From contig JACPCE010000001.1 in NCBI GenBank assembly GCA_016179945.1, positions 9,202 to 73,201 of the forward strand: a stretch of DNA of 64,000 nt, given 5' to 3'. This document shows positions 25,986 to 31,282 of the stretch, piece by piece. Positions within the stretch are counted from its first letter, which is position 1. Every line of letters begins with the position of its first letter. The translations under genes were made by a program, and so were the position numbers. This DNA is from Candidatus Woesearchaeota archaeon. Lineage in GTDB: Archaea > Nanobdellota > Nanobdellia > SCGC-AAA011-G17 > GW2011-AR18. The notes below the pieces were generated by a model, which saw only the letters and a program-made list of their open reading frames with translations, made no database searches and was not told the origin of the DNA.

Positions 25986-26516
25986 TTGGTTTATAAATAT
26001 TTCTATCAACTTATGCTTATGCTGCCTAAAAAGCTCTTAAAATACAATCCACAAATATTTGCAAAAGGAAAAAGGGGTTTAATTTACACTTTTAAGAAAA
26101 ATAACAAATTATATGCAGTAAAAATTAAAAATCCGGAATCAAAAGCAGAAAACAGAATACAAAACGAAATTAATTTTTTAAAAATCTTAAATAAATATAA
26201 AATTGGACCAAAAATAATAGAGTTTAATGAAGGTTATTTTTATTATGAATTTATTGAAGGAAAAACATTAAAAGAATTTCTTAAAGTAAATAAAAATCCT
26301 GAAAAAATTTTTGGAGAAATAATAAGGCAGTGTAAAATTCTTGATAATTTAAAAATAAACAAAGAAGAAATGCACAAACCGCTAAAAAATATTATAATAA
26401 AAAATAATAAAGTTATAATGTTAGACTTTGAAAGATGTCATTTTACAGCAAGGCCAAAAAACTTTAACCAATTCAAGCAGTTTTTAAGAAGAACAGATAC
26501 TAATCTCTTACAGTAG
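25986..26516 (+). CDS. Small atypical protein kinase (Bud32/RIO-like minimal kinase)
   Basis: IFAKGKRGLIY is Gly-loop-like. LYAVKIK carries the VAIK lysine. HKPLKNIIIKNNKVIMLDFERCHF resembles the Bud32 catalytic and DFG region. Confidence 0.45.
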   Translation: MVYKYFYQLMLMLPKKLLKYNPQIFAKGKRGLIYTFKKNNKLYAVKIKNPESKAENRIQNEINFLKILNKYKIGPKIIEFNEGYFYYEFIEGKTLKEFLKVNKNPEKIFGEIIRQCKILDNLKINKEEMHKPLKNIIIKNNKVIMLDFERCHFTARPKNFNQFKQFLRRTDTNLLQ

Positions 26517-27468
26517 TAATTTCATAGTTAAAATCATATTTCACACTAGATCTTTTAATTAGTCCCAAAAGAGAAGCCCTACTCAAATCACCTTCAACTT
26601 CCAATAAATATTGGATCCTTTTAGATTTTAAAGGATTAAAAACTTTAACTTTTATACCACAGCCATTACTCCTACCGTAAGTTCTTAGAATGTTTGCAAC
26701 ACAACGCACTACACCAAAACCATCTAAATTTTTAAGGGTTATTTGATAAAATCTATGTGTTTTCAGGTCTTCTTCAAGCCTAAGTGCAGATCCTAAAATT
26801 TTTGATTCTAAAAATTTGCGAAAAAGAACCTCATTATCTGAAGGTCTTTCAAAAGAAGTTTCTAAATTATAACGTCCATTCAATGTTCTTTCTAACAACC
26901 CTATATATAATTCCCTTTCAGAAGGCAAAATAAGGGCCGGAGGATAACTGTGTTCTTCTAGAAAATAAGACTGTAATAATCTAGCAGCTCTGCCATTTCC
27001 ATCAATATAAGGATGAATTCTTACTAATTCTATATGTGCTTCAATAGAACGAGATACAGGATGTAATTGCTCTTTATTGAGAAAAGCAACAAGATCAAGA
27101 ACAAGTCTAGCAATATTTTCATAACCAACAGGAGGAGAAAACGGTCCAAATTGAACAGCAGTATTTCTAAATTGTGGTACTTTATTTATTTCTGGTTCTA
27201 CTAAATTTCCTAGCCTTGCAATTGAAGATAAACTAATGCCTTTACCACAAAGATAATCCCAAGCTGCTTTTAAATTCCGTAGATCTGCCCTCAACTTATT
27301 TTTTGTTCCCTTGCTATTACTAAGATCCAATTCCATAGAAACAGAGTGTCTAGATGCCTCACATAACAAAGTATTATAACCCTTATATCTAAGTTTTCTA
27401 GAATATTCTGGATGTGAATTTATTCTTTCTACGGTTTCATCTATCCTGCTTATCATATCTCTTGTCAT
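26500..27468 (-). CDS. Fic/Fido-domain protein (putative AMPylase or related NMP-transferase)
   Basis: The canonical Fic motif HPYIDGNGRAARLL (HxFx[D/E]GNGR). Confidence 0.85.
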   Translation of the reverse strand: MTRDMISRIDETVERINSHPEYSRKLRYKGYNTLLCEASRHSVSMELDLSNSKGTKNKLRADLRNLKAAWDYLCGKGISLSSIARLGNLVEPEINKVPQFRNTAVQFGPFSPPVGYENIARLVLDLVAFLNKEQLHPVSRSIEAHIELVRIHPYIDGNGRAARLLQSYFLEEHSYPPALILPSERELYIGLLERTLNGRYNLETSFERPSDNEVLFRKFLESKILGSALRLEEDLKTHRFYQITLKNLDGFGVVRCVANILRTYGRSNGCGIKVKVFNPLKSKRIQYLLEVEGDLSRASLLGLIKRSSVKYDFNYEITTVRD

Positions 27469-27604
27469 ATTTAATCTATTTTTATGCTAAATAATTATAA
27501 TTACTAATAAGTAGTACCTATTTAAGATTTTTGTAAATATTATAACAGTAATTTCACCCCTATTTAATAACAACATTTATATAGTTTTAAATGTATTTAT
27601 TCTT

Positions 27605-29083: not shown

Positions 29084-29086
29084 TTG

Positions 29087-31282
29087 TCAATAAATTAAAT
29101 CCTGTATTACTTGATGCATAATCTTTCTAAACTCAACACTAAAAAAATCTTCTATTTCTTTTTTATTTATTAACAAATTTTTATCATTGTAATTACGAAA
29201 TAAACTCAACATTATTTGACGAACATAATAACCCTTCTTATCTATTTCTTGTAGATCGCCACTCAATACATCTGTAATATACAAAATAACACCCAAACCA
29301 ACATCTTTTTCTAGACATAACTCCCCAAGAGGAGCAAGATCCATATCGATTGAAACTAACTCATAAGGTTTAGAAAATAATGACTTAAGTTTATTGAGAA
29401 ATCCCATATGCTCTTGGTATGTCGCCGACATAAAAACATGATGAGTTTTGTAAAAATTATCTGTATTAAAATAACTATTTGAAGGTTTTTCAAGTAAAAT
29501 ATTTTCTATAGGAATTGGTAAATAAAATGAAGGATCTATTCTTACATAACTCTTTGGGTATACATAAATAACTTCAGGAATAACAATAGATTCAACAGGT
29601 ATGTTTTTTACTCCACCAGCAGTACCATAAAATATAAAGGTTTTTAGTCCTTGTTCTATTAAATCATTAACTTGATCCTGTATTGGTGTGCTAATTGGAT
29701 GTGGAAATAATTGCATATTCAAATTACCTATTTTCAGCATTAAAGGAATATCGAATATTGGCGAAACAATATCTTTAATTTTTGATTTATATTTATTCAA
29801 AATTAATTCTAAACTAATTAAAAACCTCTTTATTTCTCTATATTCATCATAGTTGAATAAAGGATTACGTTTATTTCTAAAAATCATATCAAATAATTCA
29901 GCACTTTCCATATCTTTAACTTTAAGTTTTGATACTAAATCCCTCACCTCCTGTTCTTTCATTTCAAAATCTCTTTGATCACTTTCACTAAATCTGCTTA
30001 ATTCAATTAGTTTAAAAAGTGCCTTCAAATAATCAAAAGAAGAGTCTTCGGTATAACCTTGTTTAAAAGGTGTTTGTAAGTAATCATAAAATCTAGTTTT
30101 AAAAGAAAGAGTAATATTCCCATTTGCTTCTTCACTATCAACAGAGAAACCTAAAGAAATTGCCTCTTTAATTAAATTAAATTTCTTCTGGCCAATACTA
30201 ATAGCTCTTCTAGTTTCATATGTTCTAAAACCTTTCTCAGACATGAAATTAAGTACAGTAAAAATAAAATCATTCAATATTAATCTAAAATTTTGATGAA
30301 AGTAAAGTTCTATTGTTTTTTGTAATAATTCATCCCACCAGCCAACTAAGGCTATTGAATTAGGATCCATTGTTTTGTAATATTTATCATCAACCAATTT
30401 TCCAGTTTCTCCAAAATCTAATATTTGTATTTCATCAGGATTAATCCCAGCAGCAAAGGCAAAAGTTTGCATGAAAATAAGAGGCACCCTAGAGTCAATA
30501 CCTGCATAAGCAAATTCAACAGGAACATATTTGTCCTCATCTCTTCCAAATACTATAAACATAGTTCTATCATCTAAATATTTCGCATAAGATTTTTTAG
30601 AAACAGCAACCAAATTTAATACCCCATTCTGAGAATATTTATTAGCTATGAAAGAAATCATTTTATCAACAGGACATAAATAAAGTTTCAGTTTATATTT
30701 CTTAATAAATGGAAGTAAACAATTAGGAAATCGTTCTTTAAGTAAATGTTTTTTAACAAAAACAATTTCTTCTCTTAAGGGGTTGTGTAAATAAACACGT
30801 GGATCGCCCTGTTTTACTCTACGTATTTTTATAACCTTGTCGTACTTACTTACAGTTAGTTCCCTCATATTATAATTAATTCCATTTTGAAAACCAGGAA
30901 CTAATATTTTAAAAAATTTTAAGTCTGATTCAAGATCAACATCAAAAGAAAAACCGCCCAAATCAACTTCTTCTTTCTTCACACTACCTAGTAATATAAT
31001 TATTTCATTTAAGAGTGTTTTATACTTTTCAGGATTGCTAAAAATTTTACTATAAACTTCTTCCCACTTACGTCCATATGACAAAAACGTCTTAAATTTT
31101 ATTAGCAATAATTTATCAGTTATAGGATCAAGTTCCCCACTATCAAGCAAAGTTACAATTAAAGAAATAACTTCTTCATATTGGGGTTCGTTTAGTGGTA
31201 ATTCATATTCAAAAATTTCTTTGAATAATCCTTTTAATACATAATAACACCTGTTTCTTATTTTTTCTTGCATATAATCCAT
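29087..31282 (-). CDS. Large protein with an unknown N-terminal region (~500 aa) and a C-terminal PNP/MTA-nucleosidase-like (PNP_UDP_1 fold) domain
   Basis: The C-terminus FIFYGTAGGVKNIPVESIVIPEVIYVY ... ELVSIDMDLAPLGELCLEKDVGLGVILYITDV parallels the Pfs/MTAN segments NTGSAGGL...GDIVV and AVEMEA...VVRAISDVA. Confidence 0.55.
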   Translation of the reverse strand: MDYMQEKIRNRCYYVLKGLFKEIFEYELPLNEPQYEEVISLIVTLLDSGELDPITDKLLLIKFKTFLSYGRKWEEVYSKIFSNPEKYKTLLNEIIILLGSVKKEEVDLGGFSFDVDLESDLKFFKILVPGFQNGINYNMRELTVSKYDKVIKIRRVKQGDPRVYLHNPLREEIVFVKKHLLKERFPNCLLPFIKKYKLKLYLCPVDKMISFIANKYSQNGVLNLVAVSKKSYAKYLDDRTMFIVFGRDEDKYVPVEFAYAGIDSRVPLIFMQTFAFAAGINPDEIQILDFGETGKLVDDKYYKTMDPNSIALVGWWDELLQKTIELYFHQNFRLILNDFIFTVLNFMSEKGFRTYETRRAISIGQKKFNLIKEAISLGFSVDSEEANGNITLSFKTRFYDYLQTPFKQGYTEDSSFDYLKALFKLIELSRFSESDQRDFEMKEQEVRDLVSKLKVKDMESAELFDMIFRNKRNPLFNYDEYREIKRFLISLELILNKYKSKIKDIVSPIFDIPLMLKIGNLNMQLFPHPISTPIQDQVNDLIEQGLKTFIFYGTAGGVKNIPVESIVIPEVIYVYPKSYVRIDPSFYLPIPIENILLEKPSNSYFNTDNFYKTHHVFMSATYQEHMGFLNKLKSLFSKPYELVSIDMDLAPLGELCLEKDVGLGVILYITDVLSGDLQEIDKKGYYVRQIMLSLFRNYNDKNLLINKKEIEDFFSVEFRKIMHQVIQDLIY

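Follow-up and report, generated by a model that had tools for sequence, protein, structure and literature searches.

Proteins in which a PNP-fold domain is joined to a sensor domain serve as immune effectors that act as ATP nucleosidases, the PNP domain being toxic even on its own (Rousset et al., bioRxiv 10.1101/2023.01.24.525353). In CBASS Cap17 and Detocs DtcC, an N-terminal sensor or regulatory region precedes a C-terminal nucleosidase domain of the PF01048 fold, which keeps the catalytic Asp, is structurally like MtnN and DeoD, and works with a cyclase, SAVED or two-component partner (Rousset et al. 2023). A second group of relevant systems is built around ADP-ribosylglycohydrolases (ARH, or ARG). 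In DraT/DraG-type pairs the ARG is the reversing enzyme, and a role in conflict is predicted for systems centred on an ARG that also comprise a phosphatase, either fused to it or encoded beside it (HD included), and variable accessory modules; the accretion of variable modules around a conserved core is a listed hallmark (PMC9503650). The predicted bacterial anti-ADP-ribosylation systems of this kind lack a recognisable coupled ART; they are co-directional operons with Nudix or WYL transcription factors, mostly rhodanese-phosphatases, and HD domains of the alarmone type, and a partner of the NP-I fold occurs in none of them (Iyer, Burroughs, Aravind et al. 2022, PMC9503650, section 3.8).

The locus described here lies in a 64,000-nucleotide stretch of a Candidatus Woesearchaeota contig (the window), in which four tightly packed open reading frames are found where an initial annotation had placed them: a small kinase (25986–26516, plus strand; 176 aa), a Fic protein (26500–27468, minus strand; 322 aa), an ARH with a fused HD domain (ARH-HD; 27605–29083, plus strand; 492 aa) and a large protein of 731 aa (29087–31282, minus strand). 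The last is 100% identical to HYU23_00220, for which NCBI takes the second ATG (31273) as the start, giving 728 aa. The 3′ ends of the kinase and Fic genes share 17 nt, Fic and ARH-HD diverge from a common intergenic region of 136 nt, and the stop codons of the ARH-HD and large-protein genes face each other across 3 nt (29084–29086; TGA-TTG-TCA), a tail-to-tail junction that leaves no room for a terminator.

A conserved two-gene cassette

The real unit at this locus is a tail-to-tail cassette of two genes, not four, with the 731-residue protein as core component 1 and ARH-HD as core component 2. The two are adjacent and convergent in nine of nine lineages, at 36–58% identity and with differing flanks; in the other lineages their 3′ ends overlap by up to 4 nt or lie up to 12 nt apart, and in one case 92 nt apart. 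Orthologues of ARH-HD, at 40–55% identity, adjoin the large gene in every lineage. When the flanking open reading frames of 20 related loci were compared all against all, the large protein and this ARH subfamily alone recurred, the flanks being unrelated between lineages and mostly made up of housekeeping genes. A mirror-tree test of co-evolution between the pair was not significant (r = 0.31, p = 0.08). The comparative data support the view that these two genes form a genuine unit, linked in function and not described before; of the four genes first proposed as an undescribed module, only these two belong together.

The cassette is also exceptionally rare. The large-protein family numbers 10 proteins among 1.84 billion representatives and occurs in 1 of 185,579 species genomes, a profile search with the ARH alone returned no member beyond these loci, and viral contigs hold no copy of either family. 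The GC content of the cassette equals that of its host in every lineage and its divergence (37–47%) is near the 55% of a ribosomal protein encoded nearby, so that ancient vertical inheritance with loss is as likely as mobility. No repeats flank the block, and with neither a GC deviation nor viral copies there is no evident mobile island.

The kinase and the Fic gene adjoin the cassette here but lie outside it. The Fic protein is canonical, as first proposed, and a predicted FICD-like AMPylase: it matches PF02661 at 45.9 bits (cut-off 24) and human FICD at E = 1.6e-14, and carries the motif HPYIDGNGRAAR at residues 152–163. Its sequence also reads as containing a class-II-like inhibitory-helix remnant (SVSMEL, residues 42–47), so that a neighbouring antitoxin is not needed. 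The kinase had been called Bud32/RIO-like, which is correct only at the level of the fold, since RIO1, Pkinase and Bud32 models all remained sub-threshold in profile searches and it is most closely related to a 174-aa kinase of archaeal origin (8yv4, 1.7e-13) and to the tRNA 2′-kinase TkArkI (7vnx, 5e-07), which places it nearest to the ArkI/AQ578 family. Like ArkI, the archaeal tRNA U47 2′-kinase of that family, it is small and ePK-like, with a K-G P-loop (KGKRG, residues 27–31) and DFE for DFG (147–149), the variant described for ArkI (PMC9095486). ArkI, however, has about 220 aa, a catalytic loop with HGQ where the present kinase has HKP (130–132), and a YKR motif that was not seen here.

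Neither Fic nor the kinase occurs at any of the 20 related loci or in any of the eight other lineages, the ArkI-like kinase shows no link to the cassette in other genomes, and in the closest relative (57% identity) an M23 peptidase and SRP54 occupy their position. Because Fic is absent from the 20 related loci, its pairing with ARH-HD, singled out initially as noteworthy, is incidental, and both genes are chance neighbours unrelated to the cassette.

A modular ARH-HD protein

The first 300 residues of ARH-HD (27605–28504, plus strand) form an ADP-ribosylglycohydrolase domain (PF03747, 44.5 bits against a cut-off of 26.2, 2e-11), with PDB matches to MJ1187 (1t5j), DraG and Tri1 (6dre). Its metal-site motifs GDALG (18–22), SDET (56–59) and DYDT (255–258) hold residues that are invariant in eight of eight sequences, namely D19, S56, D57, E58, D255, D257 and T258. 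A perfect 21-nt tandem duplication within the domain (27999–28040, plus strand), encoding IAQTNSI twice, is private to this genome and appears in the alignment as a 7-aa insertion against all orthologues.

Residues 335–492 (28607–29080, plus strand) form an HD phosphohydrolase of the class-II CCA/A-adding-enzyme type, which confirms the fusion noted at the outset: PF01966 scores 35.4 bits (cut-off 22), the CCA-enzyme model TIGR02692 3.1e-25 and the Aquifex A-adding enzyme 3wfp 2.9e-16, tRNA nucleotidyltransferases being the nearest match of the HD domain, with a marginal continuation of the similarity upstream of it. The invariant residues H360, H382, D383, H402, H434 and D468 follow the H..HD..H..H..D order of the class-II enzymes. 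Those enzymes carry a Pol-beta nucleotidyltransferase head, in place of which ARH-HD has its ARH domain, and their tRNA-binding tail domains PF12627 and PF13735 were undetected in ARH-HD.

The ARH side of the cassette is modular, with parts gained and lost between lineages. HD is fused to ARH in at least six of the nine lineages and missing from two (L013 and L014/15), and a new domain of about 170 aa, here termed X, has its own gene in four (L001, L003, L013 and L014) and fused to ARH-HD in at least one (P0009).

A large protein with a nucleosidase-like C-terminus

The 731-residue protein is multidomain, consisting of an N-terminal helical bundle (residues 1–100; 30983–31282, minus strand), a conserved core (112–345; 30248–30949, minus strand), a variable, mostly helical linker (346–505; 29768–30247, minus strand) and a C-terminus like MTA and AMP nucleosidases. 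Conservation in the core is concentrated between about residues 155 and 330, in the motifs GDPxVYLHNPxR, ERF, YLC, DDRT, PxE, MQTFAF and GWW, and 16 residues are invariant in all nine members: D160, H166, N167, R170, K177, E183, R184, C203, D237, D238, R239, T240, E256, W315, W316 and Q330. The core has no detectable homologue, with no PDB or Pfam match at E ≤ 10, and AF2 models it with low confidence; it resembles an active site or a pocket for a ligand. The AF2 models obtained are poor (pLDDT 61 and 44.5). The linker differs in length between lineages, gives an indel-rich alignment with a conservation of 0.03–0.06 per 50-residue block, and shows helices in the AF2 model.

Residues 506–700 (29183–29767, minus strand) form a divergent domain of the NP-I (PNP_UDP_1) fold, with the motifs YGTAGGV (552–558), SIDMDLAP (644–651) and ITDV (669–672), most similar to the MTA/SAH and AMP nucleosidases (1ybf among the best structural matches). 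The PNP/MTAN-like assignment made initially therefore stands: the ribose-binding Met-Asp and base-protonating Thr-Asp are retained, and the invariant residues M647, D648, T670, D671 and G553-T554-x-G556 are in register with the E-M-E and S-D of MTAN and with MTAP/PNP. The GTAGG-type loop reads as closer to the GSAGG loop of hydrolytic MTAN than to the R-x-G-S loop of phosphorylases. Since the N-terminal ~55 positions of the NP-I fold, where the residues that activate water or bind phosphate lie, cannot be recognised, the catalytic competence of the domain is a prediction.

AMP nucleosidase (Amn) combines a large regulatory N-terminal domain with an NP-I catalytic domain. In structure and sequence alike the C-terminal domain matches Amn and MtnN best, yet in a HMMER search of the representative library the large-protein family shows no link to them, and AMNp_N of Amn is unrelated to the N-terminal 500 aa. 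With so few members, the family is not a housekeeping one, and the possibility that the protein is an ordinary MTAP falls away. Cap17 and DtcC share its general architecture and catalytic Asp, but here the partner is an ARH rather than a cyclase, SAVED domain or two-component protein, the host is an archaeon, the first ~55 Pfam positions are unrecognisable, and no PADLOC model matches, those for effectors of CBASS and Detocs type included.

Discussion

We tentatively read the cassette, at somewhat less than even confidence, as an antagonistic effector/reversal pair of DPANN archaea, of stress or conflict type and acting on adenine-nucleotide and ADP-ribose chemistry. This reading is favoured by the co-occurrence of the pair and its exclusivity, the Rosetta-stone pattern of fusions (X separate or fused to ARH-HD, HD fused or absent), the invariant catalytic-site residues, the fold, the precedents and the junction. 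Weighing against it, the large protein matches no PADLOC or PHROGs model and the flanks are housekeeping genes rather than defence islands. Toxin-antidote pairs, moreover, are usually co-transcribed, not convergent. The host-like GC content, the divergence near that of a ribosomal protein, the lack of viral copies, the unrecognised start of the NP-I fold, the poor AF2 models and the mirror-tree result count against it too. Compared with the ARG-centric systems, the cassette shares an ARG core without a recognisable ART, a phosphatase and variable small accessory proteins, but its HD is of the CCA-enzyme type, its genes are convergent and the large protein is an obligate partner.

It is less likely, though plausible, that the cassette instead serves sequential salvage or catabolism, in which ARH would act on a conjugate to free ADP-ribose or a ribosyl compound, HD would dephosphorylate the product or open a (cyclic) phosphate, and the large protein, an AMP-nucleosidase-like hydrolase with a regulatory N-terminus, would return adenine and ribose phosphate for reuse. 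DPANN archaea scavenge nucleotides, and the match to 1ybf, the housekeeping surroundings, full amelioration to host GC and the lack of a PADLOC match all fit such a route, as does the proposal that phosphatases process ARG-released ADPr (PMC9503650). Extreme rarity and patchiness would nevertheless be odd for a useful pathway, convergent genes with abutting stops do not resemble an operon, two lineages do without the HD step, AMNp_N of Pfam gives no match, and the conserved core and domain X are left without a role. Less probable still is a writer-eraser pair, in which the core (~155–330) would be an ADP-ribosyl- or ribosyl-transferase-like enzyme modifying protein or nucleic acid, ARH its dedicated eraser or immunity protein, and NP-I regulatory or a processor of a nucleotide by-product. 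An ARH beside a modifying enzyme is the classical context (PMC9503650), as in DraT/DraG and Tre1/Tri1, where the ARH-family enzyme likewise adjoins a larger one, and the PDB matches of the ARH domain here include both DraG and Tri1; the ordered invariant polar residues H166, Y201/Y232 and E256 of the core might even fit an H-Y-E order. That order, however, is pattern-spotting without an alignment, the AF2 model of the core is too poor for a fold test, and profile searches of Pfam and PDB at E ≤ 10 detected no ART, sirtuin or TIR; the known pairs are also co-transcribed, whereas here the genes converge and ARH is fused to HD.

Reversal of an RNA-end or tRNA modification, with the ArkI-like kinase writing a 2′-phosphate on tRNA and the large protein acting on the same RNA or its by-products, seems very improbable. 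The relationship of the kinase to ArkI and of the HD domain to tRNA nucleotidyltransferases would suit it, and the HD domain of the E. coli CCA enzyme is reportedly active as a 2′-nucleotidase and cyclic phosphodiesterase. KptA, the known eraser of the 2′-phosphate, moreover yields Appr>p (PMC9095486). But the kinase adjoins the cassette in this window only, a gene near L013 that resembles a kinase does not match ArkI, the HKP loop departs from that of ArkI, HD is missing from two lineages, and no RNA-binding domain was detected. Most doubtful of all is the original proposal that kinase, Fic, ARH-HD and the 731-residue protein act jointly as a toxin/immunity or abortive-infection island. Their tight packing, the divergent intergenic region shared by Fic and ARH-HD and weak matches of the Fic- and kinase-type proteins to PADLOC SoFic and PD-T4-6 speak for it; the comparative context, in which the other lineages lack both genes, the closest relative has different neighbours and island boundaries are absent, contradicts it.

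On the effector/reversal reading, the two products would act in opposition on one ADP-ribose or adenine-nucleotide chemistry. The large protein would be a regulated effector, its NP-I domain splitting an adenine nucleotide or a compound of the ADP-ribose type at the N-glycosidic bond; production or sensing of a ribosyl adduct or signal may fall to its N-terminal core. ARH(-HD) would remove or degrade such an ADP-ribosyl or ribosyl-phosphate adduct or signal, and so reset or neutralise the effector. With their 3′ ends facing each other, the two genes would each have a separate promoter and their transcripts would have to overlap, allowing mutually exclusive expression. The cassette may play a toxin-antidote-like or immune-like role in these archaea.

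Gene layout and genomic setting

All four open reading frames that the initial annotation had grouped at this locus are present in the window as described: a small kinase gene (25986-26516, +), a Fic gene (26500-27468, -), a gene for a 492-aa ADP-ribosylglycohydrolase (ARH) fused to an HD phosphohydrolase (27605-29083, +; ARH-HD), and a gene for a 731-aa protein (29087-31282, -; the big protein), 100% identical to NCBI HYU23_00220. The kinase and Fic genes converge and overlap by 17 nt, the Fic and ARH-HD genes diverge across 136 nt, and the ARH-HD and big-protein genes converge with 3 nt between their stop codons (TGA-TTG-TCA). 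Since the stop codons of this last pair abut, separate promoters and overlapping transcripts are implied for the 3.7-kb cassette that the two genes form. A promoter and terminator scan with a sigma-70 model, which is inapplicable to archaea, returned no more than chance.

The region belongs to a Candidatus Woesearchaeota genome, has a GC content of ~29% and adjoins an archaeal ribosomal-protein/SecY operon as well as a fused PriS-PriL primase, a single 429-aa protein (31300-32589, -) matching both families; such fused primases are known in some DPANN/Nanoarchaeota. Elsewhere in the window, Rfam detects two tRNA genes of ~111 nt that were missed by ARAGORN (3739-3850, +; 50080-50190, -), whose length suggests intron-containing archaeal tRNAs. 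Two adjacent large proteins are predicted to be surface-exposed or secreted (24172-25968, -; 22833-24164, -), and the 598-aa candidate has a Cys-rich stretch, ends in a membrane anchor and gives weak matches of the terpenoid-cyclase-like repeat and CD1107-like kinds.

A rare and strictly coupled gene pair

Relatives of the big protein are extremely scarce. A 5.8-billion-cluster database contains only five others, HMMER run exhaustively on 1.84 billion representatives gave 10 matches, and a single genome among 185,579 species representatives encodes the protein; none was found in the viral contigs searched, and metagenome and genome scans returned known lineages only. Nine lineages were recovered, the window included, at 36-58% identity. 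In every lineage with intact flanks (eight of eight), the big-protein gene lies tail-to-tail with a gene set that includes an ARH orthologue; the contig of the ninth, L005, is cut, and only the end of the convergent neighbour that carries X, a new small domain found on the ARH side, is seen. The spacing between the 3' ends ranges from a 4-nt overlap to a 12-nt gap, with 92 nt in one case. The coupling also holds in the other direction, as a profile search with the ARH domain alone recovered members from these cassette loci and none other.

The surroundings differ from lineage to lineage (SRP54 and an M23 peptidase, L15e, PolB, endonuclease V, hydrogenase genes or PheRS), and an all-against-all comparison of flanking open reading frames found only the big protein and ARH common to the nine lineages, with L15e shared by two and a small family, Y, by two. 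L15e lies ~1 kb or less from the cassette in both cases (L002, 11898-12476; L010, 12846-13166, and L012, 5811-6332), on opposite sides and in lineages otherwise unrelated; the proximity is a faint trace of ancestral synteny or else a coincidence. Of the four-gene module initially proposed, the pairing of ARH-HD with the 731-aa protein thus stood, but the Fic and kinase genes proved to be bystanders, appearing in the flanking open reading frames of 0 of 20 related loci. What remains is a pair of genes that is rare, undescribed and strictly coupled, and our literature search found no paper joining an ADP-ribosylglycohydrolase to DPANN/Woesearchaeota or to an NP-I partner.

The idea that the block is an island did not hold: meaningful repeats are absent, the GC content of the cassette equals that of its flanks in eight hosts, and housekeeping genes surround it. 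In hosts whose GC ranges from 28 to 47%, cassette GC equals host GC, and the divergence of the cassette (37-47%) is comparable with that of an adjacent ribosomal protein (55%). A mirror-tree (Mantel) comparison of big-protein and ARH distances, on a star-like tree, was not significant (r=0.31, p=0.08). The suspected link to defence fared no better in PADLOC, where none of six members matched at E<=1; with all family members, neither PADLOC nor PHROGs gave a match. Furthermore, CBASS and Detocs partner genes (CD-NTase, DtcA/DtcB) occur in no locus, and on these two counts, effector models and partner genes, the big protein falls outside the Cap17/DtcC clade of immune ATP-nucleosidases.

The big protein: a core without detectable homologues and an NP-I domain

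The big protein comprises two conserved cores, at residues ~155-330 and ~535-700, joined by a variable helical linker. The second is the PNP-like C-terminus noted at first sight, an assignment of moderate strength on which several independent lines agree. The Pfam family PF01048 scores 15.4 bits on the window protein, under its cut-off of 25.1, and matches the same region (model positions ~55-210) in 10 of 10 family members, three of them above the cut-off (27.8, 29.0 and 36.2 bits). When PDB sequences were searched with a profile of the domain, the top two matches were Sulfolobus MTAP (1jds) and a DeoD-type PNP (4tym), the NP-I matches being marginal; a profile of the whole family matched nothing there, and only the C-terminal sub-profile did. 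The family motifs YGTaGG, vDMDlAP and vTDvl fall in register with YGTTGA and with VEMECAT and VSDNL of 1jds, and hhalign places D646-M647-D648 and T670-D671 on E172-M173-E174 and S196-D197 of E. coli MTAN. These hhalign comparisons were made against single MTAN and DeoD sequences, both confirmed against the PDB; their power is low (E=0.0026 and 0.23), and they served for motif register only. M647, D648, T670 and D671 are invariant in all nine members compared, so that the domain, assigned to the NP-I alpha/beta fold, retains both the catalytic Asp (MTAN D197, PNP D204) and the ribose-binding (E/D)-M-(E/D) motif. No Pfam or PDB alignment reaches further towards the N-terminus than ~55-66 in the model or residue ~69 of the chain, and no equivalent of the N-terminal beta1-alpha1 segment, with its phosphate-binding residues or water-activating Glu (MTAN E12), was identified. 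Judging from its sequence, the GTAGG loop appears closer to that of hydrolytic MTAN (GSAGG) than to that of phosphorylases (R-x-G-S).

The N-terminal core has no homologue in Pfam or the PDB even at E<=10, whether searched as a profile or as single sequences. It is rich in invariant polar residues: D160, H166, N167, R170, K177, E183, R184, C203, D237-D238-R239-T240, E256, W315-W316 and Q330. Because the alignments are shallow, AlphaFold2 produced models without confidence (pLDDT 61 for the whole protein with six sequences, 44.5 for the C-terminal 277 aa with 10 sequences), and no reliable fold emerged for the core at 155-330.

ARH on a CCA-type HD module, and variable accessories

Both domains initially read into ARH-HD are borne out by Pfam: the ARH domain matches PF03747 with 44.5 bits (cut-off 26.2) and the HD domain PF01966 with 35.4 bits (cut-off 22). 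The ARH binuclear-metal-site motifs GDALG, SDET and DYDT (DxDT) are invariant in eight of eight orthologues, and the PDB matches of the domain include MJ1187, DraG and Tri1. The HD domain is of the class-II CCA/A-adding-enzyme type (TIGR02692, 3.1e-25, a partial match; Aquifex 3wfp, 2.9e-16), and its ligands H360, H382-D383, H402, H434 and D468 are invariant across orthologues. The protein is a new kind of domain swap: an HD module of the CCA-enzyme type bears ARH where the nucleotidyltransferase head would be. In the window, the ARH coding sequence also contains a perfect 21-nt tandem duplication (27999-28040) that adds seven residues (IAQTNSI, present twice) found in no orthologue; it looks like recent in-frame slippage in a loop region.

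The ARH side of the cassette is modular. ARH-HD occurs without X in the window, L002 and L004/L006, the last of these a lineage present in Rifle (RIFCSP) and ANAN16 groundwater samples. In L001 (10679-11341, -) and L003 (5006-5533, -), X is a gene of its own, encoding ~175-220 aa and lying between the pair. ARH-HD is fused to X in P0009 (648 aa) and probably in L005; on L010, the fused X (~9393-9947, +) forms the C-terminus of the ARH-HD protein. In L013 and L014/15, ARH occurs with no HD anywhere in the locus and X is again present, as a separate gene in L013 (3281-3721, -) and L014 (3379-3888, -). X spans ~150-220 aa, has few invariant polar residues (a D, an N and a K) and matched nothing in Pfam; it may serve in binding or as an adaptor. 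The small gene that separates the pair in L001 and L003 was considered as a counterpart of the window kinase and rejected, as it encodes the unrelated domain X. An unannotated family of ~145 aa directly adjoins the cassette, on opposite sides, in L001 (7321-7770, -) and L003 (7061-7495, -), and may be a further accessory module.

The neighbouring Fic and kinase genes

The Fic protein is canonical, as first described: it matches PF02661 with 45.9 bits (cut-off 24) and human FICD with E=1.6e-14, and carries the HxFx(D/E)GNGRxxR motif as HPYIDGNGRAAR at residues 152-163. Towards the N-terminus, SVSMEL (residues 42-47) looks like a degraded version of the class-II inhibitory motif (S/T)xxxE(G/N) that still has the Glu, and the ~90 C-terminal residues (230-322) matched no family.

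The label "Bud32/RIO-like" given to the kinase is apt at the level of the fold but not of the family, since the protein misses the curated cut-offs for RIO1 (21.4 versus 22), Pkinase (21.7 versus 31.7) and Bud32 (TIGR03724, 20.8 versus 125). Closest to it are an archaeal kinase of 174 aa (8yv4, 1.7e-13) and then TkArkI (7vnx, 5e-07), a 2'-kinase acting on U47 of tRNA. ArkI/AQ578 proteins are marked by a non-canonical HGQ catalytic triplet, a DFE metal loop and a C-terminal YKR motif (PMC9095486). The window kinase shares the unusual DFE loop (residues 147-149), whereas its catalytic loop reads HKP instead of HGQ and the YKR motif was not found in it. The protein may represent a tRNA 2'-kinase homologue from a mesophile among the DPANN archaea; to our knowledge, Up47 (2'-phosphouridine at tRNA position 47) is so far unreported in such organisms. 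A kinase-like gene near L013 was considered as a second ArkI-like protein and rejected, as it has no PDB match.

Possible roles of the cassette

Established for the cassette are its rarity, the identities of its domains with their catalytic motifs intact, a co-occurrence that is both strict and exclusive, the fixed convergent junction and the modular accessories, and we rate it among nucleotide/ADP-ribose-centred two-component cassettes of putative function. Both products would share one ADP-ribose/adenine-nucleotide chemistry and most likely oppose each other in it, with the big protein as a regulated nucleosidase effector, ARH(-HD) removing or degrading a ribosyl or ribosyl-phosphate adduct or signal, and a possible regulatory role for the convergent overlapping transcription. 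There is precedent for each half: PNP-fold domains on sensor domains are ATP-depleting immune effectors that are toxic alone (bioRxiv 10.1101/2023.01.24.525353), and ARG domains undo the work of coupled modifying enzymes and also form predicted conflict systems that include fused phosphatases and a varying set of accessory genes (PMC9503650). In its working, the cassette would resemble a hybrid of the two, yet it is a member of neither. It lacks the defence-model matches and signalling partner genes of immune PNP effectors, differs from ARG-centric systems in HD type and gene order, and is set apart from both by being archaeal and by two domains without detectable homologues, the core at 155-330 and X.

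Whether these activities serve conflict or metabolism is where explanations diverge. One tentative possibility, less likely than not, is a previously unrecognised three-part DPANN conflict system. Its core at ~155-330 would produce or detect an adduct or signal derived from ADP-ribose and thereby gate an MTAN-like nucleosidase that depletes an essential adenine nucleotide; ARH, with HD and X where present, would be the off-switch or antidote, and the obligatory overlap of convergent transcripts would couple expression of the two genes. Against a conflict role count the empty PADLOC and PHROGs searches, the housekeeping flanks, a cassette GC no different from that of the host with a divergence near that of a ribosomal protein, and a mirror-tree test below significance; for these reasons, a salvage pathway in which ARH, then HD, then the nucleosidase act in turn stays a serious rival. 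A writer-eraser pair, with the N-terminal core as a putative transferase and ARH as its eraser, is a further, less likely rival. A link to tRNA 2'-phosphate metabolism is a weak candidate, for which the ArkI-like neighbour, present in this one genome, and the CCA-type HD speak, and nothing else. The small size of the cassette makes direct testing by heterologous expression feasible.

Very few conflict or stress systems have so far been described in DPANN archaea. The cassette unites two chemistries, those of PNP-fold nucleotide-depleting effectors and of ADP-ribose reversal enzymes, both of which are central to bacterial and eukaryotic immunity, and neither this combination nor its convergent arrangement has been reported before. 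If its role is instead metabolic, it would be a novel way for symbionts with reduced genomes to salvage ADP-ribose/adenine; if a regulated nucleosidase is indeed neutralised by ARH, nucleotide-depletion immunity would reach into the archaea, with a new ADP-ribose-linked regulatory logic.
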